Made by a program: the position numbers and the translations under genes
Assembly: GCA_016219965.1 (NCBI GenBank)
Contig: JACRJM010000015.1
Span: 31,857 to 95,856, forward strand
DNA: 64,000 nucleotides
Direction of reading: 5' to 3'
Origin: Candidatus Schekmanbacteria bacterium
GTDB lineage: Bacteria; Schekmanbacteria; GWA2-38-11; J061
Shown here: positions 7,403-48,011 of the stretch, in pieces
Layout of the letters: each line of letters begins with the position of its first letter
Position numbering within the stretch: position 1 is the first letter of the stretch
The notes under the pieces: model-generated
The model's input: the letters and a program-made list of their open reading frames with translations, nothing else
Databases searched by the model: none
Told to the model about the DNA's origin: nothing

Positions 7403-8847
7403 TCTAAGCTTTCTATTTTGGCCTGCCTTGCATCATGCTCAAAAATTTCCTCGTCACTTGCAATCCTTAAAATCTCAGTTTTGGGGAGACCAAATAGTAT
7501 ATGTTCTGCGGCAAGAAGACCCATCTCGATGGAATGATCCATATTATTATATCTAAAGAGCCCCTGTCTGCCGCAACAGATTAGGTTCTCGAATGAATTT
7601 ATAAATGGTATGGCTGCTCGAAGATGGTCCTTGTAATCAAGTCTATAAATAGGATAAGCGTGCTCTGTCTTAGTAATAAAATATTCTATGGTATTTTCTT
7701 TTATATCTTTGAATCCTATTTTTGAAAGATCATTTATACATCTTTCATAAATAGCTTTTTTATCTGCATTCCATATTTTATCTCCAATATTACATGCTAT
7801 CTCAAGTATTAGAGAAGTTTTATGAGCAGGTGAACTGTGTGGACTCCAGTTTTTAGGTTCCTGTATACGCATAAATAGATATTCCGATTCAGGTATATAT
7901 ATCCATGTATTGTCAGAAACAATTTCCTTATCAAGAAGTATATTGAGAAATATTAGCGCCCTGAAGGTCATCTTCTTTGAGACTTGAATGAGATGATCTG
8001 GGGCGGGGGGATCAAGCTTTTGTATAAATTCAGGTAGTGGGATTGTTGATATTATAAAGTCTGCTGAAATTTCTTTTTCCTCGTTATCTGAGAAAATAAT
8101 TACGCTAGTAATTTTGTTTCCATTTCGTTTTATTTTTTTTACATTATAAGAGAGAAAAAAATCTCCTTTATTTTCACTTACTATTTCTGCCATTCTTTCA
8201 GGAATTCTACCAATCCCTTTCTCAGGGTAGTAAAATTTTGTTGCATAAGTTTTAGGTGCATTCTTTTTCTTGCCTAAAAGTCTTTTAAATACATCCCAGA
8301 GATTTAGAAGGGAAATTCTTTGGGCTGCCCAATCAGAAGATATTAGAGTTGGTTTTACTCCCCATAGTTTCTCTGAATAAGGACCAAAGTATATGTTGTA
8401 GAGGGATCTTCCAAACCTGTTAACGACCCAATCTTCAAATGAAACATCTTTTTTGTTTAAAAGCTTTCTTGATATGGTTGCTACTATATAATCAAAAAAA
8501 CATTTTATTGAAACAGACAATTTAAGTTTTGTTACGAGATCTTTTGCTTCTAGAGGATAAGAAAAATATTTGCCTTGAAGTCTTATAGTGCTTTTTCTAT
8601 CACGCGTTATTACTTCATCAGACATCAAATTATAAATTTCTTTTGCAAGCTCTACATTTTGAGTTATAAATCTGTGTCCACCAAGATCAAAATGATATTC
8701 TCCATGCCTTATCGTTTGGCAAAGACCTCCGACCTGCGCTTCTTTTTCAACAAAAATTACATGATTGTTTGCTATGGACAGTTTCCACCCTGCGCTTAAT
8801 CCACAAGGCCCAGCTCCAAGTATCAATATTTTTCTTTTTTCGTCCAT
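7399..8847 (-). CDS. FAD/NAD(P)-binding oxidoreductase (amine-oxidase / UDP-galactopyranose-mutase-like Rossmann fold)
   Basis: N-terminal dinucleotide-binding motif ILILGAGPCGLSAG, then VEKE-GG and DLGGHRF, typical of the FAD-dependent amine oxidase/UGM superfamily. First gene of the minus-strand operon. Confidence 0.6.
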   Translation of the reverse strand: MDEKRKILILGAGPCGLSAGWKLSIANNHVIFVEKEAQVGGLCQTIRHGEYHFDLGGHRFITQNVELAKEIYNLMSDEVITRDRKSTIRLQGKYFSYPLEAKDLVTKLKLSVSIKCFFDYIVATISRKLLNKKDVSFEDWVVNRFGRSLYNIYFGPYSEKLWGVKPTLISSDWAAQRISLLNLWDVFKRLLGKKKNAPKTYATKFYYPEKGIGRIPERMAEIVSENKGDFFLSYNVKKIKRNGNKITSVIIFSDNEEKEISADFIISTIPLPEFIQKLDPPAPDHLIQVSKKMTFRALIFLNILLDKEIVSDNTWIYIPESEYLFMRIQEPKNWSPHSSPAHKTSLILEIACNIGDKIWNADKKAIYERCINDLSKIGFKDIKENTIEYFITKTEHAYPIYRLDYKDHLRAAIPFINSFENLICCGRQGLFRYNNMDHSIEMGLLAAEHILFGLPKTEILRIASDEEIFEHDARQAKIESLE

Positions 8848-8905
8848 TATCTTTGTTTGAAATTTTTATTCACTAATCGGGTATGATAACGTACTTTTTA
8901 AATAA

Positions 8906-8938
8906 TATGTGAAACATCTAAGTCATATGTTTGATATA
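8906..8938. promoter_or_regulatory. Inverted repeat TATGTGAAACAT-N7-ATGTTTGATATA (10/12 arms) in a divergent promoter region; candidate operator
   Basis: Read directly from the sequence. Lies 60-90 nt upstream of the minus-strand oxidoreductase start codon. Confidence 0.25.
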
Positions 8939-9181
8939 TTTTTTAATCCTTAAAAATGTTCTGTTATACGTACTATTCTCAATGTAATTTTTTAACTTAT
9001 ACAATAGTAGGTAAATCCTCAAGCTTAATTTACACTTAATATAGAACCTGATTTTAAGAAAACATTGTTTTGGATAAAGTGCTATTTGACAATTATAGGT
9101 AAGAACGTCGAACTTTTATACATTATAACTTGTTGATAATCTATAGTATTTTATAACTTGAACATATTTGTAGCAAAAAAG

Positions 9182-9198
9182 TGTCGGAATTTTAGACA
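9182..9198 (+). promoter_or_regulatory. Palindrome TGTC-N9-GACA followed by a long A/T tract (9200-9235); candidate enhancer (UAS) plus bend site for the sigma-54 promoter downstream
   Basis: TGTCGGAATTTTAGACA sits ~85-100 bp upstream of the -24 element. It is followed by T10-A8-T10, typical of intrinsically bent or IHF-type DNA between UAS and sigma-54 promoters. Confidence 0.3.
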
Positions 9199-9281
9199 GT
9201 TTTTTTTTAAAAAAAATTTTTTTTTGAAAACGCAATATTTTTCCTTTGATAAATCAATATGTTAATTATACTAATGGGAAT

Positions 9282-9296
9282 TGGCACAAATGTTGC
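9282..9296 (+). promoter_or_regulatory. Sigma-54 (RpoN) -24/-12 promoter, TGGCAC-N5-TTGC
   Basis: TGGCACAAATGTTGC gives exact GG-N10-GC spacing and 9/9 of the core consensus, 43 nt upstream of the ATG at 9339. Two sigma-54 activators (PrsR and an NtrC-like protein) are encoded in the window. Confidence 0.55.
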
Positions 9297-9338
9297 TTTA
9301 TTTTTATATACTGTGTGATTTAATATTAAAAAAAGTAT

Positions 9339-11324
9339 ATGAAATCAAATTATAAAACCTCTATCGAGTTTTGGAAAGATTTCTTAGAAAATTTATCTGA
9401 GATACATGGAATATTTTTGCAGTTAATTGGTAAGAATGGGGTTTCTTATTCTAAGTCATTTAATCAGCGGACAATATGTTCCTATCTGAAAAGATTCAAT
9501 AAAACTGTAGATGAATGTTCCAAATCCTGCCATGATCTTATACTAAAATGCATAGAAGAACGTGAAGTAAAGAGAATATCTTGCTACATGGGAGTAGAAT
9601 ACTTTGCAGTTCCAGTATTACTAGACAACGGTGAAATTGCCGCTGTTGCTGGAGGTAAAGTATTAACAACAATTCCCTATAGAGAGTCTTATGCTGAACT
9701 CTGTGAGAGATATGGCTTAGATTTAGATGAGGTATTAAATTCGATAAATGAGCTTAAGTTTATGAAAGATTCTGCAATAGATTCATATATTAAGATGATT
9801 GAAAAGTTCGGTAATAGTTCTGCTTCTGCTTTTTCAGATTTGAGAGAGCTTAAACGTAGTGAATATATTTTTAAGAAAAGTTTTGATGCTATGGAGGAAA
9901 TTTGTTCTTCTATTGGCTCATTAGAAAAATTTTATTTTGCCATCCTGAACTTTATTACAACTAATTTTAATATAAAAGATGCATCGCTATTAGTGATTAA
10001 TGAAAATCGATATGAAACAGTAGCGGACATAAGAGATTTTAAAAGCAAAGGCATATTTTCCCAGGTTAGTATATCTTCTACCTCTCATCTTATTGATCAA
10101 TTAAAGAACAGAGAAACTGGATATCTGGTAGTAACTGATCCCAGTAAGCTTGAGGAATTTGGTATTAAGTGGGGTACTCAATCACTTTCTATTTTCCCGG
10201 TTATAACTGGAAGCGGTATGTGGGGAATGATTCTTGTTTTTGATTTTATTTCGAATAATGAGCAAATGGATGATATTTCAAAGTTCTGTGTTAATTTGAA
10301 ACAAGGAATTGAAAACTTTTTAATTAAGGAAAAAATAGAAAGTATAGGACAGCAAAAAGTTGTATTTAAAAAAATTGTTGAAGATTTAAAAAAATATAAT
10401 GATGTTAATGAACTGTTAATAACAGTTGCTAACAAAATTGGCTGGTATTTTAATGCTCAAAGAGTTTCAATTGCGATTGTTGATGAAGAAGCTGGCAGGC
10501 TTGAGTTAAAGGCTGTGCGTGGAATAGATAAAAATATCATCAATAATGTTAAATACCTTGCTGAAAACAGCATCAGTAATCATGTTTTTAAATCTGGCAC
10601 TCCCATTTTTGTTAGAGATATAATGAATGATGAGAAATTTTCTAAAATGGCTCATCTTGGCTGTAATGGACGTGCTTTTGCAAGTGTTCCGTTAAGAAAT
10701 AATGGGACATCGCTTGGTGTTGTAAATTTGAGTGATATCACAGATCAGTCGAATTTGGATGAAGAGTATTTTGAGGCACTAGAGGATTTAATAAAGGTGG
10801 CGGCACTGATAATAGAGAAAGCTATTTGCAAGAAAGAATTAGGAAGTATAAACCTTAAATATGTCGATGAAACCACCGGTATTTATAACAAAAAATATTT
10901 TACTGAGTATGCAAAAAATACCATAGAAAATTCAAAAAGATATAACCGTAATACTTCTATTGTGCTATTAGATTTTGGCGAAGGGAATGGTATAAATGAA
11001 ATTAATGTAGAGGATAAGATGAGAACCACTGTAAATGATGCCAGAAAACTTATAAGACGCTCAGATATAATGGCTGCTTATGATAAAAACAAATTTGCTT
11101 TTTTATTGCCAGATACTGAAAAGGATGGAGCTCTTATTTTTGCAAGAAAGATTCAGGCGAAAGTTCATGATTTGATATTGCTTTCAGATAAAATTGGCGA
11201 AATAAAAGTTAAGGTTGGTGTAAGTACATTCCCAGATGATGGTGATACGTTGGGTGAATTGACATTTATTGCAAAGAATGCCCTTGGTGGTTCAGATAAT
11301 CCTTCATCTAGTTTCATAGAATAA
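9339..11324 (+). CDS. Multidomain regulator: Cys-containing N-terminal sensory region, two GAF domains, degenerate GGDEF (diguanylate-cyclase-like) domain
   Basis: GAF-like blocks at ~aa 190-500. C-terminal GGDEF fold carries DFGEG in place of GGDEF/GGEEF, so it is probably catalytically inactive. First gene after the sigma-54 promoter. Confidence 0.5.
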   Translation: MKSNYKTSIEFWKDFLENLSEIHGIFLQLIGKNGVSYSKSFNQRTICSYLKRFNKTVDECSKSCHDLILKCIEEREVKRISCYMGVEYFAVPVLLDNGEIAAVAGGKVLTTIPYRESYAELCERYGLDLDEVLNSINELKFMKDSAIDSYIKMIEKFGNSSASAFSDLRELKRSEYIFKKSFDAMEEICSSIGSLEKFYFAILNFITTNFNIKDASLLVINENRYETVADIRDFKSKGIFSQVSISSTSHLIDQLKNRETGYLVVTDPSKLEEFGIKWGTQSLSIFPVITGSGMWGMILVFDFISNNEQMDDISKFCVNLKQGIENFLIKEKIESIGQQKVVFKKIVEDLKKYNDVNELLITVANKIGWYFNAQRVSIAIVDEEAGRLELKAVRGIDKNIINNVKYLAENSISNHVFKSGTPIFVRDIMNDEKFSKMAHLGCNGRAFASVPLRNNGTSLGVVNLSDITDQSNLDEEYFEALEDLIKVAALIIEKAICKKELGSINLKYVDETTGIYNKKYFTEYAKNTIENSKRYNRNTSIVLLDFGEGNGINEINVEDKMRTTVNDARKLIRRSDIMAAYDKNKFAFLLPDTEKDGALIFARKIQAKVHDLILLSDKIGEIKVKVGVSTFPDDGDTLGELTFIAKNALGGSDNPSSSFIE

Positions 11325-11518
11325 CCTGTAAAAACGGTTTTGTAGAATTTTATTTCCAAATTATTCCATATTCAATCTTTTAACCTTCTGCTTTAAAATT
11401 CAACTAATTAGCTTGACTACATTCTTTTATATATTAAGATTCAATCATTGAAAATGTACATATTAATGAGCTGATATTTTTTCACGATATGAGTTACACC
11501 TCTAATTGGAGGAATTAG

Positions 11519-12337
11519 ATGAATTATTATAAAAAAGTTATGTTTATTTTATTATTTTTTTGTTTGTCTATAGTAGGTGTTTTGCGTGCATCAGACGAAT
11601 ATATAATTGGAGAAGAAGATATTATTGAAATATCAGTTTGGAAGAATCCCGAATTAAGTAAAGTTGTTGTTGTGAGACCTGATGGAATGATTTCATTGCC
11701 ACTTATAGATGATATCCAGGCTAAAGGCATGACAGCGCTTCAATTGAGAGATAAGCTAATTGAAAAACTAACAAAATTTATTGAAGTCCCTGATATTACA
11801 GTCACTCTTAGAGAAATCAACTCATATAAAGTCTATGTTATATATAACGGTCAAGGTCAATCTGGGGAATTTACTCTTAAACGAAATGTAAATCTTCTTC
11901 AGTTTTTCGCGAAAATCGGTGGTATTAAAGATATTGATTTGAAACAGTCTTATATTCTTCGTGATAATAAAAAAATTGATGTGGATATGAACAAACTTAT
12001 TGATGATAATGATTTGGCACAAAACATAGAATTAAAGCCAAATGATACATTTTTTTTTCAGGATAAATTTTCTTCTCGAATCACTGTAATAGGGCAGGTA
12101 CAGAAACCTGGTATTGTTAGCTACAGGAAAGGACTTACTTTGGTTGATGTTATATTGGAAAGTGGAGGAGTTACTGATTTTGCACGCTCTTCTGGTACAA
12201 AAGTAATTAGGAAGGCTGATGGGGAAGAAAAAATAATTAAAGTCGATATGGCTGATATATTGGAAGATGGAGAAATAGATAAAAATATTCCTGTAGAGCC
12301 TGGTGATACTGTGATTGTGCCAAAAGGATTCCTGTGA
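11519..12337 (+). CDS. Polysaccharide export protein, Wza/EpsA-like (Poly_export + SLBB), periplasmic/outer membrane
   Basis: Signal peptide, then ISVWKNPELS...VRPDGMISLPLIDDIQAKGMTALQL, typical of the polysaccharide biosynthesis/export family. Strong RBS GGAGG precedes the ATG. Confidence 0.75.
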   Translation: MNYYKKVMFILLFFCLSIVGVLRASDEYIIGEEDIIEISVWKNPELSKVVVVRPDGMISLPLIDDIQAKGMTALQLRDKLIEKLTKFIEVPDITVTLREINSYKVYVIYNGQGQSGEFTLKRNVNLLQFFAKIGGIKDIDLKQSYILRDNKKIDVDMNKLIDDNDLAQNIELKPNDTFFFQDKFSSRITVIGQVQKPGIVSYRKGLTLVDVILESGGVTDFARSSGTKVIRKADGEEKIIKVDMADILEDGEIDKNIPVEPGDTVIVPKGFL

Positions 12338-13614
12338 CCTGTATAAGAAAAACAATTTTACTTTTTTTGTTGGCTATTATTTTATCACTCTGTTTAATGG
12401 TGAATGCTAACTATTGTTGTGCCGGAGGTTTTGATTTACGTGGTTCTATTGGAGTTGATGAAGAATATAATGACAATGTTTTTCTGCTTCGTTCAAAAAA
12501 AATAGATGATTTCATGACTAGAGTGAGACCTATTGTTGATCTAACATACAGAATTAATGAAAAAAATTATTTAGAAACTAGCTATTCAGGTGAGGCAATA
12601 TTTCATAGGAAAAGCACACCCTATGTTAATGACGAAATGAGGCATACCCTAGATTCTCGATTACAAATAGCTCCACTGAATAATGTAGTGTTATTTTTGA
12701 AAGATGATTACAGCGAAATCCCAATAGATACGCGTGAACCAGATCGCTTTAAAGGTAGAAATCGTAACCTTACTGGAAAAAATGATTTCAATATTTCTTT
12801 GTCATATCTAAGGGATTATACTGCAACAATTAACACAGAATTTAAAGCCTATTATGATGATATAAGGATTAATTCTAATTCAATCAATAATAAAGAAACA
12901 GTGGGTTGTTCACTTCAATTGAATAAAATAATTTCAAATAATACTTCTATTTTTGGAAAAGTTATTGCTGAATCAGTAAACCAGAGTATAGCATCTGATT
13001 ATGATTTAATGTCATACCAGGGTGGTTTCACATATGAGCAACTTAAAAAACTTAAATTGTTTTTTACAGGTGGAGTAGTGAATAAAGATTATAAAACTGC
13101 AAAAAACCTCGATGAGTTTTTTTTAGAAGCAAATGGCGAATATGCAATACTTCAAAATTTATATTTAACTGGAAGTTTCAAAAAAGGTTTTGAAGATAAT
13201 GAAGAAAGAAGAAATGCGAAAAAAAATGCATATGAACTTAAGAATTATACTGTGGGGTTTGAATATAGGCTTATAGGAAATGGAGTGATAAAAGTTTCAG
13301 GTTTTTCGAATAAGAAAGATTTCAAACAAGCTAATAGAATGGATAAGTCAAAAGGGTTAGGATTAGATGGGACTATTTTTTTTACAAAATTAATGTCATT
13401 CATGTTTAATGTAAATTACAGTAAAAGTAAATTTCTGTCAGAAGAACAGAATAGAAATGATAAAACTTTGCTGTTAGGATGTGGAATATTTATTCATCCT
13501 TTTAGTTGGCTGCAGACAGGAGTTCGCTATCTTAGGACAGATAGGAATTCGAATATTAATATAAGAGATTATATTGTGAACCGCTATACTTATAATATAA
13601 CTTTATTGTTTTAA
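12334..13614 (+). CDS. Putative outer-membrane beta-barrel protein of the EPS export apparatus
   Basis: Signal peptide, alternating amphipathic strands, and C-terminal ...YNITLLF with a terminal Phe typical of OMP barrels. Its start overlaps the Wza-like gene by 4 nt. Confidence 0.4.
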   Translation: MTCIRKTILLFLLAIILSLCLMVNANYCCAGGFDLRGSIGVDEEYNDNVFLLRSKKIDDFMTRVRPIVDLTYRINEKNYLETSYSGEAIFHRKSTPYVNDEMRHTLDSRLQIAPLNNVVLFLKDDYSEIPIDTREPDRFKGRNRNLTGKNDFNISLSYLRDYTATINTEFKAYYDDIRINSNSINNKETVGCSLQLNKIISNNTSIFGKVIAESVNQSIASDYDLMSYQGGFTYEQLKKLKLFFTGGVVNKDYKTAKNLDEFFLEANGEYAILQNLYLTGSFKKGFEDNEERRNAKKNAYELKNYTVGFEYRLIGNGVIKVSGFSNKKDFKQANRMDKSKGLGLDGTIFFTKLMSFMFNVNYSKSKFLSEEQNRNDKTLLLGCGIFIHPFSWLQTGVRYLRTDRNSNINIRDYIVNRYTYNITLLF

Positions 13615-13623
13615 TAATGTGTT

Positions 13624-15138
13624 ATGGCTGAGACCTCTAAAATACATTTAAGAGATTATGTGGAAATTCTTTATAAGAGAAGGTTCTATTTTTTATCTAT
13701 ATTCTTTTTGATGACTACGATAGTTACGATCATAAGCTATTTTCTACCAAAGGTTTATGTTTCGACTGCATTAATACTTATAGAAAAACAACAAGTTATC
13801 AAGAATATGGTTGGTGGTGAAGGTGTTTTGAGAGAGGATATGAAAAGTAAAATAATGACTTATAATGAAAGAATAATAAGTACAAATAATTTATTGAGTG
13901 TAATTAAAAAACTAGATCTGGATGTTAATTTAAAAACTCCAAGAGCAATGGAAAACATGATTAACAAGATCAGATCCAATATAGATGTAACAGTTAAAGG
14001 AATTAATTTATTTGAGATAACATATGAAGATGAAGATCCAAAACTTGCTATGTTGATTACCAGGACTCTTACTGATAATTTTATCGAATCAACATTGAAT
14101 GAATCTAGAACTCAAAGTCACTCAGTATTTGATTTTATTAAAGGCATGGCAGAACAATATAAGAAAAACTTGGAAGATTCAGAAAACACTCTTGAAAATT
14201 TTAAGAAACAGCACATAGGTGAACTTCCGGGAGAAGTAAATTCTAATCTGACAAAACTTTCACAATTCGACTCAATGTATACCGAAACAAAACTAGCGCT
14301 TGATGTAGCATTTCTGAAAAAGAAGAAAATTGAAGAACAGATTGAAAAAGAAAAACCCTTTATCAATCCTCAAGGAGATACACGAGAAAGATTAAAATCT
14401 CTCGAAGCAAAACTCGCTCAACTAATGTCTATGTATACAGAAAATTATCCTGAGGTTAAGATGCTTAAAAAAATAATAGAAAACACTAAGAAACAGATAA
14501 GTGGAGAGATTCCTGATGGAACACCGGACAATCCTGAAATGGCTTTACCAAACCCCGTATATCAAAAATTAAAAGAATCATTAAGTGATGTAGAAATTGA
14601 AATAACTTCTTTGAATGGTAAACTTCAAAGCTATCAAAATAAGCTTAATGAATATTCTGATAAAGCTAAGTCAGTACCGGAACAGGAACAGGAACTTACA
14701 AAAATAACAAGAGACTATAAAGTAAATGAAGAGATTTATCAAATGCTTTTGAGAAGACTTGAAGAAGCAAGAATAACAAAAGAACTTCAGGCTGATGAAG
14801 AAGGTGAAAAATACAGAATAGTAGATCCTCCTTTAACGCCTATTAATCCTATCAAACCCAATAGAGCAAGAATAATGCTTATTGGATTATTATTAGGAGT
14901 TGGAGCTGGTATAGGTATAGTTGTATTGCTTGAATATTTTGACCATTCAATAAGAGAACTTAATGATGCCAAATCTTTTTTCCAAATTCCAATTTTAGGA
15001 ACAATTCCCGAAATATTACTTGATGATGATGTTAAGAGGATAAAAAAATATAATATAAGAGCAGCCCTACTGGGATTTGTCTATCTGCTAATGTTATTTG
15101 CTCTTATTATAAGAGAGTTTTTAAAATATAATTCATAA
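13624..15138 (+). CDS. Polysaccharide chain-length determinant protein (Wzz/GumC/EpsF family, PCP-2a transmembrane part)
   Basis: N-terminal TM, long coiled-coil periplasmic region, and C-terminal TM with the G-rich helix LIGLLLGVGAGIGIV. Confidence 0.7.
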   Translation: MAETSKIHLRDYVEILYKRRFYFLSIFFLMTTIVTIISYFLPKVYVSTALILIEKQQVIKNMVGGEGVLREDMKSKIMTYNERIISTNNLLSVIKKLDLDVNLKTPRAMENMINKIRSNIDVTVKGINLFEITYEDEDPKLAMLITRTLTDNFIESTLNESRTQSHSVFDFIKGMAEQYKKNLEDSENTLENFKKQHIGELPGEVNSNLTKLSQFDSMYTETKLALDVAFLKKKKIEEQIEKEKPFINPQGDTRERLKSLEAKLAQLMSMYTENYPEVKMLKKIIENTKKQISGEIPDGTPDNPEMALPNPVYQKLKESLSDVEIEITSLNGKLQSYQNKLNEYSDKAKSVPEQEQELTKITRDYKVNEEIYQMLLRRLEEARITKELQADEEGEKYRIVDPPLTPINPIKPNRARIMLIGLLLGVGAGIGIVVLLEYFDHSIRELNDAKSFFQIPILGTIPEILLDDDVKRIKKYNIRAALLGFVYLLMLFALIIREFLKYNS

Positions 15139-16018: not shown

Positions 16019-16486
16019 TTGAGCAAAATTCTGTTTATTGATGATGACGAAACCATGAGAGAAGCGGTTTCTAGAGCTATTGGAACTATGGGACATATCT
16101 GTGAGACTGCTGCAGATGGGTTTGAAGGATTAAAAAAAATTAAAGAGGAAAATTATGATCTTGTTATAACAGATATGCGTATGCCAAAACTGGATGGAAA
16201 GGAGTTTACAAAAAGAGCTATTCAATTTGACAAAGGAATATTAGTAATAGTTCTGACTGGTTATGGCTCAGTTGAATCGGCAGTTGAACTACTGAAACTT
16301 GGGGCATATGATTATTTAGAAAAACCCTTGAATTTCGAAGATCTCGAATTTGTAATTAATAGAGCCCTTGAAAAGAAAAAGATGGAAGGACAATTGAGTT
16401 TTTTTAAGGGAATGATATATACACTGATAATATCAATTCCTATCTGGCTTATACTTGGCATAATACTTGCTGCTTTTTTATCTTAA
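16019..16486 (+). CDS. Single-domain response regulator (CheY-like receiver) with a C-terminal transmembrane helix
   Basis: Receiver motifs DDDETMRE, DLVITDMRMP and VLTGYG. Last ~25 aa are hydrophobic (LIISIPIWLILGIILAAFL). TTG start preceded by an AAGGAG RBS. Confidence 0.6.
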   Translation: MSKILFIDDDETMREAVSRAIGTMGHICETAADGFEGLKKIKEENYDLVITDMRMPKLDGKEFTKRAIQFDKGILVIVLTGYGSVESAVELLKLGAYDYLEKPLNFEDLEFVINRALEKKKMEGQLSFFKGMIYTLIISIPIWLILGIILAAFLS

Positions 16487-34609: not shown

Positions 34610-35449
34610 GTGAGTAATAAATCTAAAAGAGATACATTTTTTTTTATTGTAGTTCTAATTACGTTTCTTCTACTTTACAGTAAAACGATTATTTGGTTAG
34701 GAAGTCGATGGTACAATGATGAGGATTACTCTCACGGACCATTAATTCCACTTGTTTCAGGTTATCTTATATGGATAAAAAGGGACAAACTAAAGCAAAT
34801 AGAACTATCGACAAATATAGTAGGGCTCTATTTGCTGATCGTGTCTCTTTTAATCCATGTCTTCAGTATAAGGGCGGAGGTTAGTTTTACATCAGCGTAT
34901 TCATTAATTTTGTCAACTGCTGGTATAGTCCTTTATTTTTTTGGCCGCAATTTATTTAACGAAGTAATTTTCCCAATCGGTTATCTTGTTTTTATGGTTC
35001 CTTTTTTCCAGTTTATTATTGATCCATTGTCAAATAAACTGAAACTGTTTTCAGCTTACTTGTCAGCAGAAATAATCGATCTTGCAGGTATTCCAGTGTA
35101 TAGGGATGGTGTTATGTTGCATCTTGCTACAGGCTCTCTTGAAGTTGCAAATCCTTGTAGCGGAATAAGATCAATAATATCGCTTTTAGCTCTCGGAACT
35201 ATATTCTCATATTTTTCGACTACTACAATGACGAATAGAATTTTGCTAGTTTGTTCTACAATTCCTCTTGCCGTTGTTGGCAATTTGGCAAGAATAGTTT
35301 TTTCAGGAGTAATGACAAATGCAGGTATAGATGTTACTACTGGATTCATACATACTCTCACTGGTTTAATCGTTTTTGCAGTTGCATTTGCAGGCCTTAT
35401 TGGTGTCAGGAAACTTCTTATATGGAAAAGCGAAATAAAAAATATTTAA
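34610..35449 (+). CDS. xrtA: Exosortase (EpsH; XrtA-type transpeptidase of the PEP-CTERM system)
   Basis: Eight-TM protein with exosortase active-site motifs ANPCSGIRS (Cys), GNLARIVFSG (Arg) and the downstream His region. Followed by EpsI and PrsK/PrsR, opposite PrsT. Confidence 0.8.
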   Translation: MSNKSKRDTFFFIVVLITFLLLYSKTIIWLGSRWYNDEDYSHGPLIPLVSGYLIWIKRDKLKQIELSTNIVGLYLLIVSLLIHVFSIRAEVSFTSAYSLILSTAGIVLYFFGRNLFNEVIFPIGYLVFMVPFFQFIIDPLSNKLKLFSAYLSAEIIDLAGIPVYRDGVMLHLATGSLEVANPCSGIRSIISLLALGTIFSYFSTTTMTNRILLVCSTIPLAVVGNLARIVFSGVMTNAGIDVTTGFIHTLTGLIVFAVAFAGLIGVRKLLIWKSEIKNI

Positions 35450-36077: not shown

Positions 36078-38201
36078 ATGGTAGGACTTATTTTAGCACC
36101 ATCAGCGCTGTGTTTCATTCTTCTGATTCCTCTTAGCTTCTATGTTTTAAGCAAGAATCCCAAGGAACTTCCTAACATCTCTTTTGCAATTGCCACCGGG
36201 ACTTTGGCATTAGTTGAGTTAGGGAAGTTTATGTTTCTCCTTAATCCAGTGTCTTGGACAGCAGATATATGGCTTAAATGTTTTTGGGGTGGATTAGTAT
36301 CAATGCCGGTATCGTGGCTTTTCTTCAGCCTCATATTTGCAAGAGAAGGCTATAATCCAATAATTACGAAATGGCGTTGGGGCCTGACAGGGGTTTCACT
36401 CGCATCAGCGGCAGCAATTCTCGTTGTTACTAAAGATGATAAAGCTATTTATCCTGCTGTTGTCGGCAAAACTCCGGGAGTAGTTCTTGGGGCTGACAGC
36501 TATTTTATGTGTATATATCTTATGCTCGCATTTGTCCTCGTAATAGTTAATTTTGAAAACACATTAAGAAACGCATCGGGCCCAATTAAAAGACAGATAA
36601 AATATGCAATAGTTGGAATAATTGGAGTCTTCTCATTCTTTATATATATTTTGACTGAAGCACTTTTATATTCTTTTATCGCAGTTAAACTTTTATTTGC
36701 CGGTTCATGCATCACTATAATTTTAACACTGGTCCTATATTTTTCTATTATAAGATACCGTATGCTCGATGTTCACGTCTTCATTTCCAGATATGTTATT
36801 TACAGGTCAGTTTCAATCCTTGCAGTTGGCATCTATTTATTATTAACTGGAACATTGTTACAGCTTACTGAGGTTCTTGGAGGTAGTTTTTACCAATATT
36901 TTAAACCGGTAATGGTTTTTGTCGCAGTAGCTTTGTTCGCAATATTGTTACTATCAGACAGAGTGAGGCGAAAACTTCAAATATTTATTAGTAAGAATTT
37001 TTTTGCCAATAAATATGATTACCGTTACGTCTGGTCTCAATTTACAGAAAAACTTGGCTACACGGTAAAGATTAATGAAATGTTGCCGGAAATTGCCGAG
37101 ATGATTGCCGGAATTATGTGGGTTGAATCAGTTTCAATCTGGTTGTATGATGAGGAAGTTAAGGGATACAAGGTGGCAGAATATTTTAATCTCATGGAGA
37201 TGAAAGATGTAATAATAAAAAGTGACGATTTTATTGTTAAAGCACTTGAAGAACAGGAAATATTAGATCTTACAAAGCTTACGGAAAGTTCGGATGTTCA
37301 AGATTTAGACAAGGCTATATTTATGTCTAACACCTTAAATGCACGTGTAGTGGTCTCAATGAAAAATCAAGAGGGGTTAATGGGTTTTATTGCAGTTGGT
37401 AGCGAAATAACTGGAGAACATTTTAATTATGAAGATTATGAACTGCTTCAGACATTAGCAAGGCAATCGGCAAACCTAATTCAAAATGCTATGCTTTCTG
37501 AAAGATTAATGATTTCACAGCAAATGGAATCTGTTACCAGAGTTGCATCATTTATAATTCATGATCTCAAGAATCTTATATCAACACTGGATATGCTTTT
37601 AGATAATAGCAGGGAATATATTGATAATCCTGAATTTCAGAAAGACTTGATAATCACACTCGAAAATACTGTAAAAAAGATGCGCAGGATGATGGAGAGA
37701 GTTTCTACAAAACCGCAGGAGACAAATTTTATCTTTGAACCTGTCAACTTAATTAATATAATTAGAAATAGCATCGAGGAGGTCCGTCTGGAGAATAATC
37801 CTAAAGTTAAATTGATGAAATCCTTTGACGAAAATGACTCAGTTGTAACTATGGGAGATGAAAAATCATTGAATAAAGTTTTTACAAATATCTTGATAAA
37901 TGCAATGCAGGCTTTGCCTTCAATTGGAGGAGTTATAGATATTAGCGTAAACAAAAATAACGATAGAATTAATGTTTCTATTTCAGATAATGGGAAAGGA
38001 ATAACACAAGACTTCATAAAAAAAAGTCTTTTTAAACCATTTCAGACTACTAAAGAGGGAGGTTTAGGTATAGGATTGTACCAATGCAAAACTATTATTG
38101 GAGCACATGAAAAGGCAACATTAGATGTCGAAAGCGAAAAGGGGAAGGGAGCAAAATTTATAATAAGCTTTCCTATCAGTGAAAGAGGTGCAGTAAATTG
38201 A
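36078..38201 (+). CDS. prsK: PEP-CTERM system sensor histidine kinase PrsK (polytopic N-terminus, GAF, HisKA, HATPase)
   Basis: About 700 aa with ~8 N-terminal TM helices, a GAF-like middle, a His box (FIIHDLKNL) and a HATPase_c G-box (DNGKGI...GGLGIGL). Adjacent to exosortase and PrsR. Confidence 0.75.
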   Translation: MVGLILAPSALCFILLIPLSFYVLSKNPKELPNISFAIATGTLALVELGKFMFLLNPVSWTADIWLKCFWGGLVSMPVSWLFFSLIFAREGYNPIITKWRWGLTGVSLASAAAILVVTKDDKAIYPAVVGKTPGVVLGADSYFMCIYLMLAFVLVIVNFENTLRNASGPIKRQIKYAIVGIIGVFSFFIYILTEALLYSFIAVKLLFAGSCITIILTLVLYFSIIRYRMLDVHVFISRYVIYRSVSILAVGIYLLLTGTLLQLTEVLGGSFYQYFKPVMVFVAVALFAILLLSDRVRRKLQIFISKNFFANKYDYRYVWSQFTEKLGYTVKINEMLPEIAEMIAGIMWVESVSIWLYDEEVKGYKVAEYFNLMEMKDVIIKSDDFIVKALEEQEILDLTKLTESSDVQDLDKAIFMSNTLNARVVVSMKNQEGLMGFIAVGSEITGEHFNYEDYELLQTLARQSANLIQNAMLSERLMISQQMESVTRVASFIIHDLKNLISTLDMLLDNSREYIDNPEFQKDLIITLENTVKKMRRMMERVSTKPQETNFIFEPVNLINIIRNSIEEVRLENNPKVKLMKSFDENDSVVTMGDEKSLNKVFTNILINAMQALPSIGGVIDISVNKNNDRINVSISDNGKGITQDFIKKSLFKPFQTTKEGGLGIGLYQCKTIIGAHEKATLDVESEKGKGAKFIISFPISERGAVN

Positions 38202-39559
38202 CAAAAAAACAAAAACTCTTAATTGTTGAAGATGACCGTGAAGCATTAAGGCAGTTAGATTGGGCATTTTCTAGGTTTTATAAAGTTATAAAGACTGATA
38301 CTGAGGAACAGGCCATTGAATTATTTATTGAACAACAGCCGCGTGTAGTATTGCTCGATCTTTCTCTTAGCGATGACCAGGAAGAACAGGAAGGGTTTAG
38401 AATATTGGAAAAAGTGTTAAGCCTTGATCCTCTTACTAAGGTTATTGTTGTTACAGGACATGATGAGGACAAAGCAGCTATCAAAGCAATAAGACTTGGT
38501 GCATGGGATTATTATATTAAACCTGTAAAGCCGTCAGAATTAAGAGCTATGGTAGATAGGGCTTACCATATAAGTGACATTGAGGAGAAAAGCTTAACCA
38601 ATGCAAGAAAAGAGTTTGACGAGAACAAATATGGTGAGATTGTAGGAGGATGTCCTGAAATTAAAGAAGTAATGCAGTTTATTGATAATGTCGCTGGAAC
38701 TGAGACAACAGTATTAATCCTTGGTGAAAGTGGCACCGGGAAAGAACTAGTGGCTCGTGCTATCCATAATTCCAGCAAGAGAAAAGAAAAGCCTTTCATT
38801 GTAATAAACTGTGGTGCAATCCCTGAAAACCTGCTGGAAAGTGAGCTTTTTGGACACGAGAAAGGTTCTTTTACAGGAGCTTACGCACAAAAAAAAGGAA
38901 AATTGGAGTTGGCGGAAGAAGGAACTATATTCCTTGATGAAATAGGTGAAATTCCACCAATACTTCAAGTAAAATTGCTCAGGTTCCTTCAGGAGAAAGA
39001 GTTTGAACGTGTTGGCGGCACAAAGCAGATTAAAGTTAATGCGAGGATAATAGTTGCAACTAACAGAGATTTGAAGACTGATATGAATGAAGGTAAATTC
39101 AGAGAAGACCTTTATTATCGTTTGAATGTTGTTTCAGTAACATTGCCGCCTTTAAGAGAGAGGGGAAATGATGTAATACTGATTGCAAGATTTTTGGTAG
39201 ACAAATATTGTGCTGAAAACAATATTCCTCCAAAATCTCTGAGTAGAGAAGCAGAGCTGGCAATTAGAAAATATCAGTGGCCAGGGAATATAAGGGAATT
39301 GGAAAATCTCACAAAAAGAGCAATAATCATGTCTCCAGGGAGTTTGCTTTTCCCCTCTGACCTGGGATTAAAAGAAACGGCAGAGTCAAAATGCCTCTTA
39401 ACACTAAAAGAAGCAAAAGAAGAAATAGAGAGGAAATGTCTGCTTGATGCTCTTGAAAAAAATAATGGATTTGTAAGCAGAGCTGCTAAAGATTTAGGTG
39501 TAAGTAGAGGAACATTTTACGATTTATTGAAAAAACATGGGATTGAAATTGAAGAATAA
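38198..39559 (+). CDS. prsR: PEP-CTERM-box sigma-54-dependent response regulator PrsR
   Basis: REC domain, AAA+ sigma-54 activator domain (GESGTGKE, GSFTGA, Walker B FLDEIG) and a C-terminal HTH. Its start overlaps prsK by 4 nt. Confidence 0.8.
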   Translation: MTKKQKLLIVEDDREALRQLDWAFSRFYKVIKTDTEEQAIELFIEQQPRVVLLDLSLSDDQEEQEGFRILEKVLSLDPLTKVIVVTGHDEDKAAIKAIRLGAWDYYIKPVKPSELRAMVDRAYHISDIEEKSLTNARKEFDENKYGEIVGGCPEIKEVMQFIDNVAGTETTVLILGESGTGKELVARAIHNSSKRKEKPFIVINCGAIPENLLESELFGHEKGSFTGAYAQKKGKLELAEEGTIFLDEIGEIPPILQVKLLRFLQEKEFERVGGTKQIKVNARIIVATNRDLKTDMNEGKFREDLYYRLNVVSVTLPPLRERGNDVILIARFLVDKYCAENNIPPKSLSREAELAIRKYQWPGNIRELENLTKRAIIMSPGSLLFPSDLGLKETAESKCLLTLKEAKEEIERKCLLDALEKNNGFVSRAAKDLGVSRGTFYDLLKKHGIEIEE

Positions 39560-44255: not shown

Positions 44256-44287
44256 GTTAGCGAGCGAATATAATTAAATGACAAAAT
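44256..44287 (+). repeat. Copy B of the 32-nt repeated element, overlapping the start codon of the histidine kinase gene
   Basis: GTTAGCGAGCGAAT ataattaa ATGACAAAAT; the ATG at 44278 is the annotated start of the kinase. See copy A. Confidence 0.5.
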
Positions 44288-45522
44288 CCATAGATATGAA
44301 TAATCCCCCAACTTCCGCTACGAGCGTTTCAAATGGATCATCTGAAAAAAATAATCTATTTTATGAAAAAGAGTTTGTAAGAAGAATTTTCACCATTCTT
44401 TTCCTGCTCGTCGGAGTAACTACAATACATTATACTACTCCGTTAGCTTTTACACAGTATCATTATGTTTTTGCCAGAATGTACTATATCCCAATAATAC
44501 TTGGCTCCTTCTGGTATGGTCTGAAAGGAGGGTTCATAGTATCATTTTGTTCGGCAGTACTTTATGGCCCTCATATTTTCTTCCAATGGCGGACAGCCGG
44601 CATGGGCACATTAAACGAATACCTTGAGATAGCGATTTATATGGCTGTAGGTATTGTTACAGGTTTTATGGCTGATCAGGAGAAAGTTCTGAGATTTAAG
44701 TATCAGAAGGCTGCTGATGACCTTGAGAAATCCTATGAAAAACTTAAGGAGCAGGCAAGACAGCTCCTTGAAAAAGAACAGCAACTTATACGAGCAGACA
44801 GACTTGCCACTATGGGGGAGCTTGCTGCAAGTTTAACCCATGAGGTTAGAAATCCTCTCGGCTCAATATTGGGGAGTGCGGAGATACTTAAGGATGACTA
44901 TAAACCGGGTGACGTGAAATATGAGTTTCTTGAAATAATGATAAAAGAAGCCAACAGGTTAGACAGAGTAATTAATAACTTTTTGTCATTTGCACGGTCT
45001 AACAAACCTGATATCAAGGAATTTGATATTAATTCCTCGATCCTTGACATAAAGGAACTTGTGGAAATTGGAGCTGCTAAAAAAGGTATAACCATCAACA
45101 CAAACCTTGATGGCAAAATAGGGAAAATCAATGCCGACGAAGAGCAGATAAAACAAGCTATTTTAAATGTTCTTTTAAACTCCATCCAGGCCATGGATAA
45201 AAATGGGAGAATCACTATTTCCACGTTCCAAGAAAGCAGCGGGACCTCTGCAAGAGATTTATCTGAACAGGAAATTACAGTCGGGAAAATGCCTGCTGTG
45301 CAATGTGTCAATATATCGTTTACCGATAATGGCTCAGGTATAATTCCGGAAAACATGGAAAAAATCTTCAATCCTTTTTTTACTACAAGAGAGAACGGCA
45401 CTGGATTGGGACTTTCCATAACACGAAGAATAATAGAAAATCATAGAGGTTCTATTCATGTGCAGTCAAGAGTGAATGAGGGTACTACTTTTGTTATTAA
45501 ACTTCCTCTCAGGGAATTTTGA
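44278..45522 (+). CDS. Sensor histidine kinase (four-TM N-terminus, HisKA + HATPase; NtrB/AtoS-like)
   Basis: H-box LTHEVRNPLGSI and ATPase boxes (NLDGKIGK..., DNGSGI, GTGLGLSI). The true start may be the Met at 44296. Confidence 0.75.
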   Translation: MTKSIDMNNPPTSATSVSNGSSEKNNLFYEKEFVRRIFTILFLLVGVTTIHYTTPLAFTQYHYVFARMYYIPIILGSFWYGLKGGFIVSFCSAVLYGPHIFFQWRTAGMGTLNEYLEIAIYMAVGIVTGFMADQEKVLRFKYQKAADDLEKSYEKLKEQARQLLEKEQQLIRADRLATMGELAASLTHEVRNPLGSILGSAEILKDDYKPGDVKYEFLEIMIKEANRLDRVINNFLSFARSNKPDIKEFDINSSILDIKELVEIGAAKKGITINTNLDGKIGKINADEEQIKQAILNVLLNSIQAMDKNGRITISTFQESSGTSARDLSEQEITVGKMPAVQCVNISFTDNGSGIIPENMEKIFNPFFTTRENGTGLGLSITRRIIENHRGSIHVQSRVNEGTTFVIKLPLREF

Positions 45523-46889
45523 AAATGGATAATTCTGACATAAAGATATTGTTGATTGATGATGACGACAGTCTGAGGAGGGTTATAGAACATAATCTTT
45601 GCGAAGAAGGATATAAAGTTATTTCAGCTTCCGGAGGCAGTGCCGGAATAAAAATCCTGATGGAGAGCGAGTTTGACATAGTAATTACTGATTTGAAGAT
45701 GCCTGACATTGACGGCATGGAAGTTCTCGGGACTGTTAAATCCCATAATAAGGATATACCGGTTATTATGATAACTGCATTTGGCACCATAGAACAGGCA
45801 GTCGCTGCATTAAAATCCGGAGCTTTCGATTATCTTACTAAACCTTTTAACCGCGACGAACTTAAAATAACTGTAAAAAAGGCACTTGAACTTAGAAGCC
45901 TGCGCGGTGAGAATTTAAGGCTGAAGGCTGAGCTTTCAGGAAAATTCAGTTTTGATTCGCTTATCTATGGAAGCCCTGTTATGAACGATATAGTTGAACT
46001 GCTCCGTAAGGTGTCTTATTCAGATTCAACTGTAATGCTTCTCGGGGAGAGTGGGACAGGAAAAGAACTTATAGCAAAAGCCATTCACTACAACAGCCCG
46101 AGAAACAAGGGGCCATTTGTGATAGTAAACTGCGCTGCTATACCTGATGAACTTTTGGAAAGCGAGCTTTTCGGACATTCTAAAGGTGCCTTTACCGGAG
46201 CTTACAGCGAAAAAAAAGGAAAGTTTGAATATGCAGATTCAGGGACAATTTTTCTCGATGAAATTGGGGATCTGAAACCTTCCCTGCAGGCAAAGCTGCT
46301 TCGTGTATTGCAGGAAAAAAAAATAGACAAGGTCGGCAGCTCCGTACAGGTTGATGTTGATGTGAGGATAATTTCTGCGACTAACAGGGATTTAAAAAAA
46401 ATGATTTCAGATAGTTTGTTCCGGGAGGATCTGTTCTACCGTCTCAGCGTAATTCCGGTAAGGATTCCGCCTTTGCGTGAAAGAAGGGACGATATCCCTC
46501 TCTTGCTGGACTATTTTATTAAGAAAAACAGCAAACAAAGAAAGCTTGTGGTAACTTCGGAAGCCCTTGCAATACTAACTAATTACAGCTGGAGAGGGAA
46601 TGTAAGAGAGTTAGAAAATCTCATTGAAAGGCTTACTGTCATTAAAAGTGATTCCACTATAATACCAGCGGATCTGCCCGAAGAAATGACTTCATGTTCA
46701 TCTGTTGCAGGAGGTGTTATTTGTGCTTTACCTGAAGAAGGACTTTCTCTCGATGAACTGGAGCGGGATATTATTTTAAAAGCCCTTGAAAAAAATGAAT
46801 GGAATCAGTCAAAGGCAGCGAAATATTTGGATATGACCAGGCCTACGCTTATATACCGTATGGAAAAATATAATATTAAAAAACCTTAA
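45519..46889 (+). CDS. Sigma-54-dependent response regulator (NtrC family: REC-AAA+-HTH)
   Basis: REC (DLKMPDIDG), GESGTGKE, GAFTGA, ESELFGH and a C-terminal Fis-type HTH. Overlaps the kinase stop by 4 nt. Confidence 0.85.
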   Translation: MKMDNSDIKILLIDDDDSLRRVIEHNLCEEGYKVISASGGSAGIKILMESEFDIVITDLKMPDIDGMEVLGTVKSHNKDIPVIMITAFGTIEQAVAALKSGAFDYLTKPFNRDELKITVKKALELRSLRGENLRLKAELSGKFSFDSLIYGSPVMNDIVELLRKVSYSDSTVMLLGESGTGKELIAKAIHYNSPRNKGPFVIVNCAAIPDELLESELFGHSKGAFTGAYSEKKGKFEYADSGTIFLDEIGDLKPSLQAKLLRVLQEKKIDKVGSSVQVDVDVRIISATNRDLKKMISDSLFREDLFYRLSVIPVRIPPLRERRDDIPLLLDYFIKKNSKQRKLVVTSEALAILTNYSWRGNVRELENLIERLTVIKSDSTIIPADLPEEMTSCSSVAGGVICALPEEGLSLDELERDIILKALEKNEWNQSKAAKYLDMTRPTLIYRMEKYNIKKP

Positions 46890-47478
46890 AGTTTTTTACC
46901 TGTTTGAAAGTTTTTCTATGGATTTCGCAGGGACCAATCTCCATTATTTTCATGATATGTTCTTTTGTAGGATAGCCTTTATGCCTGTCAAAGCCATACT
47001 GCGGGTATAAGGTATGCATCTCCATCATGAACTTGTCCCTTGTCACTTTTGCAAGGATAGAAGCAGCCGCTATAGAATAGCTCTGTGCATCTCCCTTTAT
47101 TATAGTTTTCTGAGGTATTGAAGAATCTATTGCAACTATACCGTCTATTAAAAGGTAATCAGGTATCTGGTTTAAACCTTTAACCGCTTTTTCCATGGCA
47201 AGCTTTGAAGCCTGCAAAATATTTATTTCATCTATTATTTTTTCATCAACTTCTGAAATAGAATAGGAAAGAGCTGTTCCAATGATCTTGTTAAAAAGAT
47301 AATCTCTTTTTGAAGAAGAAAGTTTTTTTGAATCGTTAAGACCTTCTATGCGATGATCCGCAGGAAGTATAACGGCTGCTGCATGCACCGGACCGGCAAG
47401 CGGACCTCTACCGGCTTCATCTATTCCGGCAATAAATCTAAAGCCCTTGCAGAACCCTTCTTTTTCGAACAGGTCCAT
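46876..47478 (-). CDS. rnhB: Ribonuclease HII
   Basis: GIDEAGRGPLAGPV catalytic motif and ~200 aa length. Confidence 0.85.
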   Translation of the reverse strand: MDLFEKEGFCKGFRFIAGIDEAGRGPLAGPVHAAAVILPADHRIEGLNDSKKLSSSKRDYLFNKIIGTALSYSISEVDEKIIDEINILQASKLAMEKAVKGLNQIPDYLLIDGIVAIDSSIPQKTIIKGDAQSYSIAAASILAKVTRDKFMMEMHTLYPQYGFDRHKGYPTKEHIMKIMEIGPCEIHRKTFKQVKNFKVF

Positions 47479-47495
47479 TAAGGTATCAGGTTATA

Positions 47496-47840
47496 TTATT
47501 TCTGCTCTTGAACCTTGGCTGCTTTGCCAAATTTACTGCGAAGATAATAGAGTTTTGCCCGCTTTACGACACCTTTTTTGGAGATCGTGATTTTTTGCAG
47601 AAGCGGTGAAAAAACCGGGAATATTCTTTCTACACCGATACCGTTTGATATCTTTCTGACGGTAATAGTTGACCTGGGACCCTTGTTCTTTATGGCAATT
47701 ATAGTTCCTTCGAATACCTGTATCCTCTCCTTGTCACCTTCAAGGATTTTAAAGTGGACCTTTACTGTATCGCCAGGTGTATACTGCGGATAATCTTTAG
47801 AATATTTTTCACCTGTAAACTGATCAATCGTTTCAAACAT
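47496..47840 (-). CDS. rplS: 50S ribosomal protein L19
   Basis: 114 aa, conserved bL19 sequence (GDTVKVHFKI.EG.KERIQ.FEG..I, KRAKLYYLR). Confidence 0.9.
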   Translation of the reverse strand: MFETIDQFTGEKYSKDYPQYTPGDTVKVHFKILEGDKERIQVFEGTIIAIKNKGPRSTITVRKISNGIGVERIFPVFSPLLQKITISKKGVVKRAKLYYLRSKFGKAAKVQEQK

Positions 47841-48011
47841 GATTTAAGTCTCCTGAAAAACTGAAAAACATATGTAATCTAACGCCAGATGTTTGTCAAA
47901 TAAATTATTATTACTTTTTCAGTATTATTTAAAAAGTGACAACAAAAAAAAATTAATGTATTTTCTTACTTTATTCAATAAATTGTAGATGAATAGCAAA
48001 GCGAGGTACTC

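Follow-up and report, generated by a model that had tools for sequence, protein, structure and literature searches.

The syp exopolysaccharide (EPS) cluster of Vibrio fischeri combines SypG, a response regulator and sigma-54 activator, with several sigma-54 promoters inside the cluster, and nifH, glnHp2 and Pu are sigma-54 promoters assisted by integration host factor (IHF). A closer counterpart of the element treated here is the PEP-CTERM box of Haft (2006), a 17-nt motif (motif 1) followed by a sigma-54 motif (motif 2) upstream of PEP-CTERM protein genes. The published spacer between the two motifs is 62.8 ± 10.6 nt (range 32–92) and the distance from motif 2 to the ATG is 71 ± 38 nt (minimum 23); motif 1 is sometimes repeated, a few sites lie before genes that do not encode PEP-CTERM proteins, and phylogenetic profiling ties the box only to PrsK, PrsR and PrsT, and the box is the predicted PrsR site (PMC1569441). 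Here we analyse positions 9105–9297 of a 64-kb stretch of contig JACRJM010000015.1 from a Candidatus Schekmanbacteria bacterium (hereafter the window), which encodes a complete XrtA/PEP-CTERM-type EPS locus. In our reading, to which we give a probability of roughly 0.78, this segment would be an enhancer-dependent PEP-CTERM-box sigma-54 promoter that is activated by PrsR and drives a single regulator gene, the product of which resembles a receptor for cyclic diguanylate (c-di-GMP).

The element resembles the published box in that its spacer (83 nt from the end of the box to TGGCAC) and its distance from motif 2 to the ATG (42 nt) both lie inside the published ranges, the promoter is of the TGGCAC-N5-TTGC type, and prsK, prsR and prsT are found in the same locus. 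It differs in its target, which is a cytoplasmic PocR–GAF–GGDEF-like regulator and not a PEP-CTERM protein, and in its host, which is Schekmanbacteria-like and belongs to a candidate phylum outside the Proteobacteria, to which the motif was described as restricted. Its spacer also exceeds the usual proteobacterial length (mode 62–65 nt) by about two turns of the helix.

The sequence TGGCACAAATGTTGC at 9282–9296 on the forward strand is the sole exact match to TGGCAC-N5-TTGC on either strand of the window, where shuffled sequences lead us to expect 0.01. The exact spacing and consensus claimed in the original prediction are thus borne out by the letters, as is its failure to find a second match in any other intergenic region. 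The GG and GC dinucleotides are exactly 10 bp apart in a TGGCAC-N5-TTGC(W) context, and the element faces the gene that begins at 9339 from within a non-coding spacer of 491 nt. A scan with a sigma-54 position weight matrix (PWM), proposed at the time as a check, placed the same site at the top of the window with 18.4 bits. The matrix is an approximate, home-made one after the Barrios consensus, and one of 30 mononucleotide-shuffled windows equalled this value, so that the score alone is only suggestive. Transcription is predicted to start near 9308.

The palindrome that had been noted 85–100 bp upstream is present 84–100 nt from TGGCAC; it is imperfect and has the form TGTC..AA.TT..GACA. The box, TGTCGGAATTTTAGACA, matches at 15 of 17 positions, including an asymmetric GG, the consensus TGTCGGAAATTTTGACA that we derived from eight boxes preceding PEP-CTERM genes. 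The same-lineage locus L135 provides a second comparison. Its PrsR is 75% identical to that of the window, the gene order is the same, and the gene directly 3′ of prsR encodes a 301-residue PEP-CTERM protein that has a signal peptide and ends in ...SPIPEPSTIFLTGTALLTVFFIRCKNLR. Upstream of this gene stand TGTCGGAAAATTAGACA, 95 nt of A/T-rich spacer and TGGCACGAATTTTGCA (19.8 bits, the best of the locus), and its box agrees with that of the window at 15 of 17 positions, differing only at the central positions 9 and 10. In L135 the PEP-CTERM gene with two boxes and the strong sigma-54 promoter (11525–12651) lies between prsR and prsT; the window and the loci L133/L134 from Schekmanbacteria metagenome-assembled genomes (MAGs) have no PEP-CTERM gene in that interval. 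PEP-CTERM genes were also sought for box comparison in the window and at the contig ends, and none were found there. Reading the palindrome as an intrinsic terminator was rejected, as its stem has just 4 bp and there is no convergent gene with its end at this place.

The class to which the box belongs was examined by scanning metagenomes with the pattern TGTC..AA.TT..GACA-N55-85-TGGCAY-N5-TTGC, which is found at no fewer than 120 loci, and sorting the boxes by the positions that the pattern leaves unconstrained; the counts and class descriptions in this paragraph hold among the matches listed. Boxes reading TGTCGG precede PEP-CTERM protein genes in seven of 13 cases, compared with one of 109 for the other box types (Fisher p = 2e-7), and that one reads TGTCGA. 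In the TGTCGG class the PEP-CTERM gene begins about 30–75 nt downstream, the GG half-site is promoter-distal, the consensus is TGTCGGAAATTTTGACA and the spacers are mostly 62–65 nt, with two at 72 and 76 nt. Several further types of enhancer recurred in the same scan, each at a set distance from a sigma-54 promoter (loci L009–L128), and many of these loci have an adjacent activator gene. TGTCTAAA(N)TTTAGACA precedes lipoprotein or secreted-protein genes on low-GC contigs, TGTCCAAATTTGTGACA lies 81 nt before genes resembling pyrroloquinoline quinone (PQQ) dehydrogenases, TGTCTTAAATTCTGACA lies 76–77 nt before a 140-aa gene for a putative CBS-domain protein (judged by its C-terminal sequence) and TGTCCGAATTTGCGACA lies 74 nt before a gene resembling a putative FtsX-like permease.

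A relative found in three other metagenomes encodes a GGDEF-like protein that is 95% identical to that of the window (the 95% relative), and its spacer has diverged by 13.7% overall and by about 27% within 9199–9338. Against this background the box has no changes in 17 positions, an IHF-like core downstream of it has none in 13, and the −24/−12 element has one in 16, a C-to-T change to TGGCAT (TGGCATAAATGTTGC) that keeps the consensus. The flanks of the IHF-like core differ at six of 23 and eight of 17 positions and the predicted leader at 14 of 43. A more distant orthologue, 41% identical, is encoded in L131 (GCA_964549305.1), which was reached through homologues of the neighbouring export gene. 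Here the box TGTCGAAAAATTGGACA stands exactly 83 nt upstream of the −24/−12 element, the same spacer length as in the window; the promoter TGGCATGATTGTTGCA scores 17.9 bits, the best of its 14.8-kb locus, and lies 44 nt before the orthologous ATG; and AATCAATAAGTTA is found 16 nt before TGGCAT, where the window has 17 nt. Apart from these elements the L131 spacer cannot be aligned to that of the window. That three short islands hold their spacing while the DNA around them has diverged is strong evidence of function, and the earlier proposal of a sigma-54 promoter with an upstream activator site holds for the −24/−12 element, the palindrome and the distance between them.

Other searches for relatives of the GGDEF-like protein were less productive. 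A word-based homologue search recovered the 95% relative and one protein of 25% identity and missed the 41% orthologue, and a search of GTDB representative genomes gave only an irrelevant Myxococcales GGDEF fragment. The distant homologue (locus L006) is also a PocR–GAF–GGDEF protein, with an intact GGEEF active site. In that locus TGGCCCTGGAATTGC at 779–793, a one-mismatch match to the −24/−12 element, precedes a 63-aa open reading frame upstream of the homologue, and no PEP-CTERM-type box is evident upstream of this match.

A second, weaker box may lie further upstream (CGTCGAACTTTTATACA). It falls inside a block, 9097–9202, with two changes in 106 nt in the 95% relative (compared with 13.7% across the spacer), and comparable distal boxes are found 79 nt upstream of the main box in L131 (TGTCGGTTTTCTGAACA) and 63 nt upstream in L135 (TGTCGGATTTTTGAACA). 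We regard the assignment as tentative.

The original prediction also proposed a T10-A8-T10 tract about 45 bp upstream of the promoter as a bend element. The tract is in fact T9-A8-T9 and its 3′ end is 56 nt upstream of TGGCAC. It has changed at eight of 28 positions in the 95% relative, where it is still all A/T, and L131 has no such tract, so a role as a specific conserved element was rejected and its role as the bend element is unsupported. GC-rich PEP-CTERM loci also have an A/T-rich spacer 3′ of the box, and we infer that the A/T-rich stretch would act as a generic flexible or bent spacer and not as a specific site. The better bend candidate is the sequence AATCAATATGTTA, a perfect match to the IHF consensus 17 nt before TGGCAC, which from its conservation is a candidate bend site kept in the relatives. 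A further match to this consensus, TATCAACAAGTTA at 9126–9138 on the reverse strand, overlaps the first copy of a direct repeat; its lone substitution in the 95% relative falls on an N position of the consensus, and two of the eight matches in the window thus lie within one spacer (8848–9338). Of the direct repeat itself (TTATAACTTG, twice), the second copy is at 9151 as reported and the first is at 9123, not 9124. A repeated 10-mer with copies no more than 60 nt apart turns up in 12% of shuffles of the AT-rich spacer, and one at any distance in 44%, and copy 1 is mutated in the 95% relative; the repeat was rejected as a regulator site because it is at chance level and unconserved.

Table 1. 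Positions in the window of the promoter elements, of the predicted target and activator genes and of neighbouring features.
Feature	Position	Strand	Sequence	Remarks
Glycan-modification genes, divergent	up to 8847	−		
Intergenic spacer	8848–9338			491 nt
Possible distal, weaker box	9105–9121	+	CGTCGAACTTTTATACA	Agrees with the consensus at 11/17; proximal box 77 nt downstream
Proximal PEP-CTERM box (predicted PrsR enhancer site)	9182–9198	+	TGTCGGAATTTTAGACA	About −126 to −110 from the predicted start
T9-A8-T9 tract	9200–9225	+		A/T-rich spacer between box and promoter
IHF-consensus site, candidate	9252–9264	+	AATCAATATGTTA (WATCAANNNNTTR)	About −56 to −44; overlooked in the original prediction
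Sigma-54 −24/−12 promoter element	9282–9297	+	TGGCACAAATGTTGCT	Exact match, top PWM score, conservation
Target gene, PocR sensor–GAF–degenerate GGDEF	9339–11324	+		661 aa; Pfam PocR, GAF, GGDEF
Sigma-70-like promoter before the export gene (ATG 11519)	11413–11440	+	TTGACT-16-TAAGAT	Promoter scan; outside the sigma-54 module
prsK–prsR (histidine kinase, sigma-54 activator), with the box as predicted target	36078–39559	+		

If these assignments are correct, PrsK would sense a signal and phosphorylate PrsR, and PrsR~P would bind the 17-bp TGTCGGAATTTTAGACA, the centre of which lies about 118 bp before the start, and perhaps also the weaker box 77 bp further up, and would oligomerise there. The A/T-rich spacer and an IHF-type protein near −50 would bend the DNA and so let the PrsR ATPase contact the sigma-54 holoenzyme at TGGCAC-N5-TTGC, and ATP hydrolysis would then drive formation of the open complex, with transcription starting near 9308. 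This is the standard NtrC-family scheme applied to the conserved parts of the locus. The sequence elements, their conservation at constant spacing in several lineages and the link of this class of box to PEP-CTERM genes are observed; that PrsR binds, that IHF takes part, where transcription starts and what the protein does are predictions. We know of no PrsR for which binding to its box and activation have been shown directly. The order of sites is that of nifH, glnHp2 and Pu, with an activator site near −110/−125, WATCAANNNNTTR near −50 and then −24/−12; unlike in those textbook promoters, the IHF site of the window is predicted from the letters and matches a consensus that is not enriched across the window.

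The first gene downstream encodes a protein with an N-terminal PocR sensory domain, a GAF domain (residues 355–490) and then a GGDEF domain. In the last of these DKNKF aligns with the GGDEF of the A-site, RRSD aligns with the RRSD I-site of the Thermotoga maritima diguanylate cyclase (PDB code 4URS), and the upstream metal/substrate region is degenerate. The L131 orthologue has DEESI in the active site and RSSD in the I-site, and the 25% homologue keeps GGEEF. As the cyclase active site is lost and the RxxD I-site kept, the protein is probably a c-di-GMP signal receptor or regulator that serves the EPS machinery of the XrtA type encoded next to it. It ends in ...GGSDNPSSSFIE, with neither a PEP motif nor a transmembrane tail, and is thus not itself a PEP-CTERM protein. 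Five cysteines of the PocR domain (window 9339–9800), C47, C60, C64, C82 and C122, are invariant in three PocR–GAF–GGDEF proteins that are 23–41% identical, which hints at a metal or Fe–S/redox site.

PelD of Pseudomonas aeruginosa, which has a GAF and a degenerate GGDEF domain, binds c-di-GMP at RxxD and licenses Pel synthesis (PMC8461298). In the target protein, too, a GAF domain precedes a GGDEF domain in which GG(D/E)EF is missing and RxxD is kept five residues upstream, and its gene likewise lies in an EPS cluster. It differs from PelD in its N-terminus, which is a PocR sensory domain without transmembrane helices, and in its pathway, which is of the Wzx/Wzy type with an exosortase and is not Pel. 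PelD is absent from the 30 PDB sequence matches of the target protein, which show likeness to generic GGDEF domains only, and the comparison is one of logic and not of membership. By this analogy it is conceivable, though we hold it only tentatively, that in Schekmanbacteria-like bacteria PrsK/PrsR induces, besides PEP-CTERM proteins and by way of the same box and sigma-54, a dedicated c-di-GMP receptor of the PocR–GAF–degenerate-GGDEF type that licenses the Wzx/Wzy-type XrtA EPS machinery post-translationally.

An A/U-rich hairpin on the forward strand (9302–9344; −9 kcal/mol, z = −3.1), in which 9302–9312 pairs with 9334–9344 including the AUG, is probably not functional, because most of its 5′ arm would be missing from a transcript that starts at 9308 and the 95% relative has different arm sequences. 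Riboswitch and small-RNA readings were dropped after an Rfam scan of 8600–11700 gave no RNA family and a single match with E = 0.55.

How far the promoter reaches is a separate matter, as it had been proposed that the whole EPS operon is gated by RpoN. The sigma-54 promoter would then be the principal promoter of the plus-strand operon and all EPS synthesis would depend on it. The GGDEF-like gene does stand at the head of a long same-strand EPS run; a search for an intrinsic terminator in the 194 nt between it and the export gene found none (the fold is weak, −4 kcal/mol), which makes read-through plausible; and in the XrtA locus of a GC-rich contig (L082) a box and sigma-54 promoter likewise head an EPS cluster. 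Against this, relatives with the same order of export, chain-length, ParA, response-regulator and transferase genes that have no GGDEF-like gene (L129/L130, from a Schekmanbacteria MAG, and L132) show no sigma-54 site near the export gene with a score above 11.5 bits; the sigma-54 module travels with the GGDEF-like gene. The export gene has a strong Shine–Dalgarno sequence and, in all four lineages, a TTGACT-type sigma-70-like promoter: that of the window lies in a block invariant in the 95% relative, that of L131 reads TTGACT-16-TATTAT, and a CTTGACT element precedes the gene in L129 and L132. Several further gaps of 100–220 nt inside the cluster could hold promoters, and in Aquincola RpoN1 controls the PEP-CTERM gene pepA and not the EPS biosynthesis genes (PMC9850573). 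The missing sigma-54 site in the gene-less relatives and the conserved sigma-70-like promoter together indicate that the promoter serves the regulator gene and not demonstrably the whole operon, and whole-operon gating, which we consider unlikely, is not supported. Read-through may add to transcription of the EPS operon; since these genes have a conserved sigma-70-like promoter of their own it would be at most an addition, and it is unlikely to be the sole source.

In this respect the locus departs from syp, where the structural operons carry the sigma-54 promoters; in the window the regulator gene alone does so, a sigma-70-like promoter being retained by the export operon. The activators are also of different families and the enhancers of different sequence. 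The two systems agree in that the EPS locus encodes its own two-component sigma-54 activator and has a −24/−12 promoter with an upstream enhancer.

The second-best sigma-54 score in the window, 16.6 bits, belongs to TGGCATAATACTTGCT at 16456–16471 on the forward strand, 45 nt before the ATG of the TIGR03013 priming glycosyltransferase. It falls in the codons L-G-I-I-L-A of the hydrophobic tail of a small response regulator, relatives read TGGAAT.. and TGGGGT.. there (synonymous or conservative changes that degrade the −24 element), and no box was found upstream of it. An internal promoter for the priming glycosyltransferase was dropped on these grounds, and the site is probably a coding coincidence.

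The two sigma-54 activators named in the original prediction are both present in the window. PrsR (38198–39559) scores 544.9 bits against TIGR02915 (cutoff 502.6) and carries the Walker A motif GESGTGK and ESELFGH. The other is an NtrC/AtoC-like enhancer-binding protein (EBP; 45519–46889) that scores 408 bits against the same PrsR model, below its cutoff of 502.6. The proposal that either of them could act here stands for PrsR, which the class of the box makes the likely activator, and leaves the second regulator, by the operon of which no box was found, as a minority candidate.

Several observations weigh against a PEP-CTERM-box promoter activated by PrsR. The sigma-54 contact loop of PrsR (residues 214–228) reads GSFTGA and not GAFTGA. 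No rpoN gene is present on the 76.7-kb contig, on which there are two EBPs with Sigma54_activat domains. The second kinase/activator pair (44278–46889, forward strand) is conserved in the locus in all related lineages examined. In locus L022 a TGTCGG box has an activator other than PrsR and a gene for a lytic transglycosylase in its vicinity, so boxes of this class do not belong to PrsR alone. Across the window the IHF consensus shows no enrichment, with eight matches compared with 10.5 expected. The likelihood ratio of the PEP-CTERM class over other box classes, calculated from the sequence of the box, is just +1.8 bits; it is modest because position 13 in the window is an A, where all eight proteobacterial examples have a T. 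Finally, the right half-site of the window box is TAGACA, in place of the TTGACA of the proteobacterial boxes or the TTTACA that the text of Haft (2006; PMC1569441) gives for the 3′ end of motif 1, which it matches at four of six positions. The doubt about class is removed by the box of L135, the sole lineage-specific example, and the boxes that we found before PEP-CTERM genes end in TTGACA or TAGACA. We conclude that 9182–9198 can be classed as a PEP-CTERM box, with the caveat that the 3′ end of motif 1 is taken from that text alone.

Some of these points would also fit a promoter that is sigma-54-dependent and activated by the second NtrC/AtoC-like regulator, or by one encoded elsewhere in the genome. 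In the window, L133/L134 and L135 alike the second pair keeps its place beside prsT, and its regulator has the canonical GAFTGA loop. TGT-N11-ACA palindromes serve many activators, with at least five other box classes in our scan, and the activator beside the TGTCGG box of L022 is closer to the second regulator than to PrsR (45% versus 40% identity). What makes such an activator rather improbable is the box itself, which has the asymmetric GG half-site in the promoter-distal orientation and 15 of 17 positions of the boxes of PEP-CTERM genes, one of them in the same lineage. The published profiling, moreover, links the box solely to PrsK, PrsR and PrsT (PMC1569441), and the operon of the second regulator has neither a box nor a sigma-54 site nearby. 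PrsR thus remains the likely activator by the sequence of the site that it would recognise. A fortuitous match in AT-rich non-coding DNA, with the gene read from an ordinary sigma-70 promoter in 8848–9338, would agree with the one shuffled window that equalled the PWM score and with weak sigma-70-like matches in the spacer (such as TTCTCA-18-TACAAT at 8976–9005), but it is highly improbable given three elements and a spacing kept down to 41% protein identity in diverged flanking DNA and sigma-70-like matches at or below chance (13 found, 17 expected).

The second pair adjoins prsT, just before rnhB–rplS, in the window and at 14973–17548 in L133/L134 and 15589–18147 in L135; an apparent gap at 47478–48012 holds rplS. 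No target promoter for this pair was found within the window, and neither boxes nor sigma-54 sites were found near prsT, the second regulator pair or the gene for a large beta-helix protein.

The remaining gene content agrees with an EPS locus of the XrtA type. The plus-strand run opened by the PocR–GAF–GGDEF gene continues with genes for a polysaccharide export protein, a putative porin, a chain-length determinant and a ParA-like ATPase, followed further 3′ by a small response regulator, the TIGR03013 priming glycosyltransferase, many glycosyltransferases, the exosortase EpsH, EpsI, PrsK and PrsR. PrsT is encoded on the opposite strand, and the second histidine kinase/NtrC-like pair lies beyond prsT. 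NCBIfam curated cutoffs are exceeded by the TIGR03013 transferase and, with equivalog models, by PrsR, PrsK (TIGR02916, 417.7 bits, cutoff 300) and PrsT (TIGR02917, 562.5 bits, cutoff 312.2). The nearest named homologues are from Candidatus Schekmanbacteria MAGs (76 and 60% identity for PrsR and 58% for the export protein), in which the gene order around prsR is identical; these homologues by themselves would make membership of that candidate phylum most likely. The exosortase (34610–35449, forward strand) scores 196 bits with the general exosortase model (cutoff 105.6) and falls below the XrtA-specific cutoff (188.7 versus 208) despite its XrtA-associated neighbours PrsKRT and TIGR03013, and its subtype is ambiguous. 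The small response regulator (16019–16486, forward strand) is a stand-alone receiver of 155 residues with a hydrophobic C-terminal tail resembling a membrane anchor (…MIYTLIISIPIWLILGIILAAFLS), and a counterpart occupies the same position of the EPS operon in L129, L131 and L132.

The device itself is already known, and the database name of PrsR, ‘PEP-CTERM-box response regulator transcription factor’, derives from the box. What is new is the host phylum, a regulator in place of a sorted protein as the target, and the conserved 83-nt geometry with its IHF-like site. The PrsK/PrsR box has been a bioinformatic prediction since 2006, and the experimental support met in our literature search is limited to the rpoN dependence of the PEP-CTERM gene of a floc-former (PMC9850573). 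The locus shows that the module of box and sigma-54 promoter, its geometry conserved, exists in a candidate phylum that is not proteobacterial, and it gathers two boxes, an IHF-like site and −24/−12 within about 200 bp, a compact target for work on how PrsR binds and the DNA bends. It suggests that the PrsK/PrsR regulon can include a regulator gene instead of a sorted surface protein; if the receptor does license the EPS machinery, a feed-forward circuit would couple the exosortase regulon to the sensing of a second messenger and, by PocR, of small molecules. The analysis also corrects the view that RpoN gates the whole operon, which would mislead predictions of when the matrix is made.

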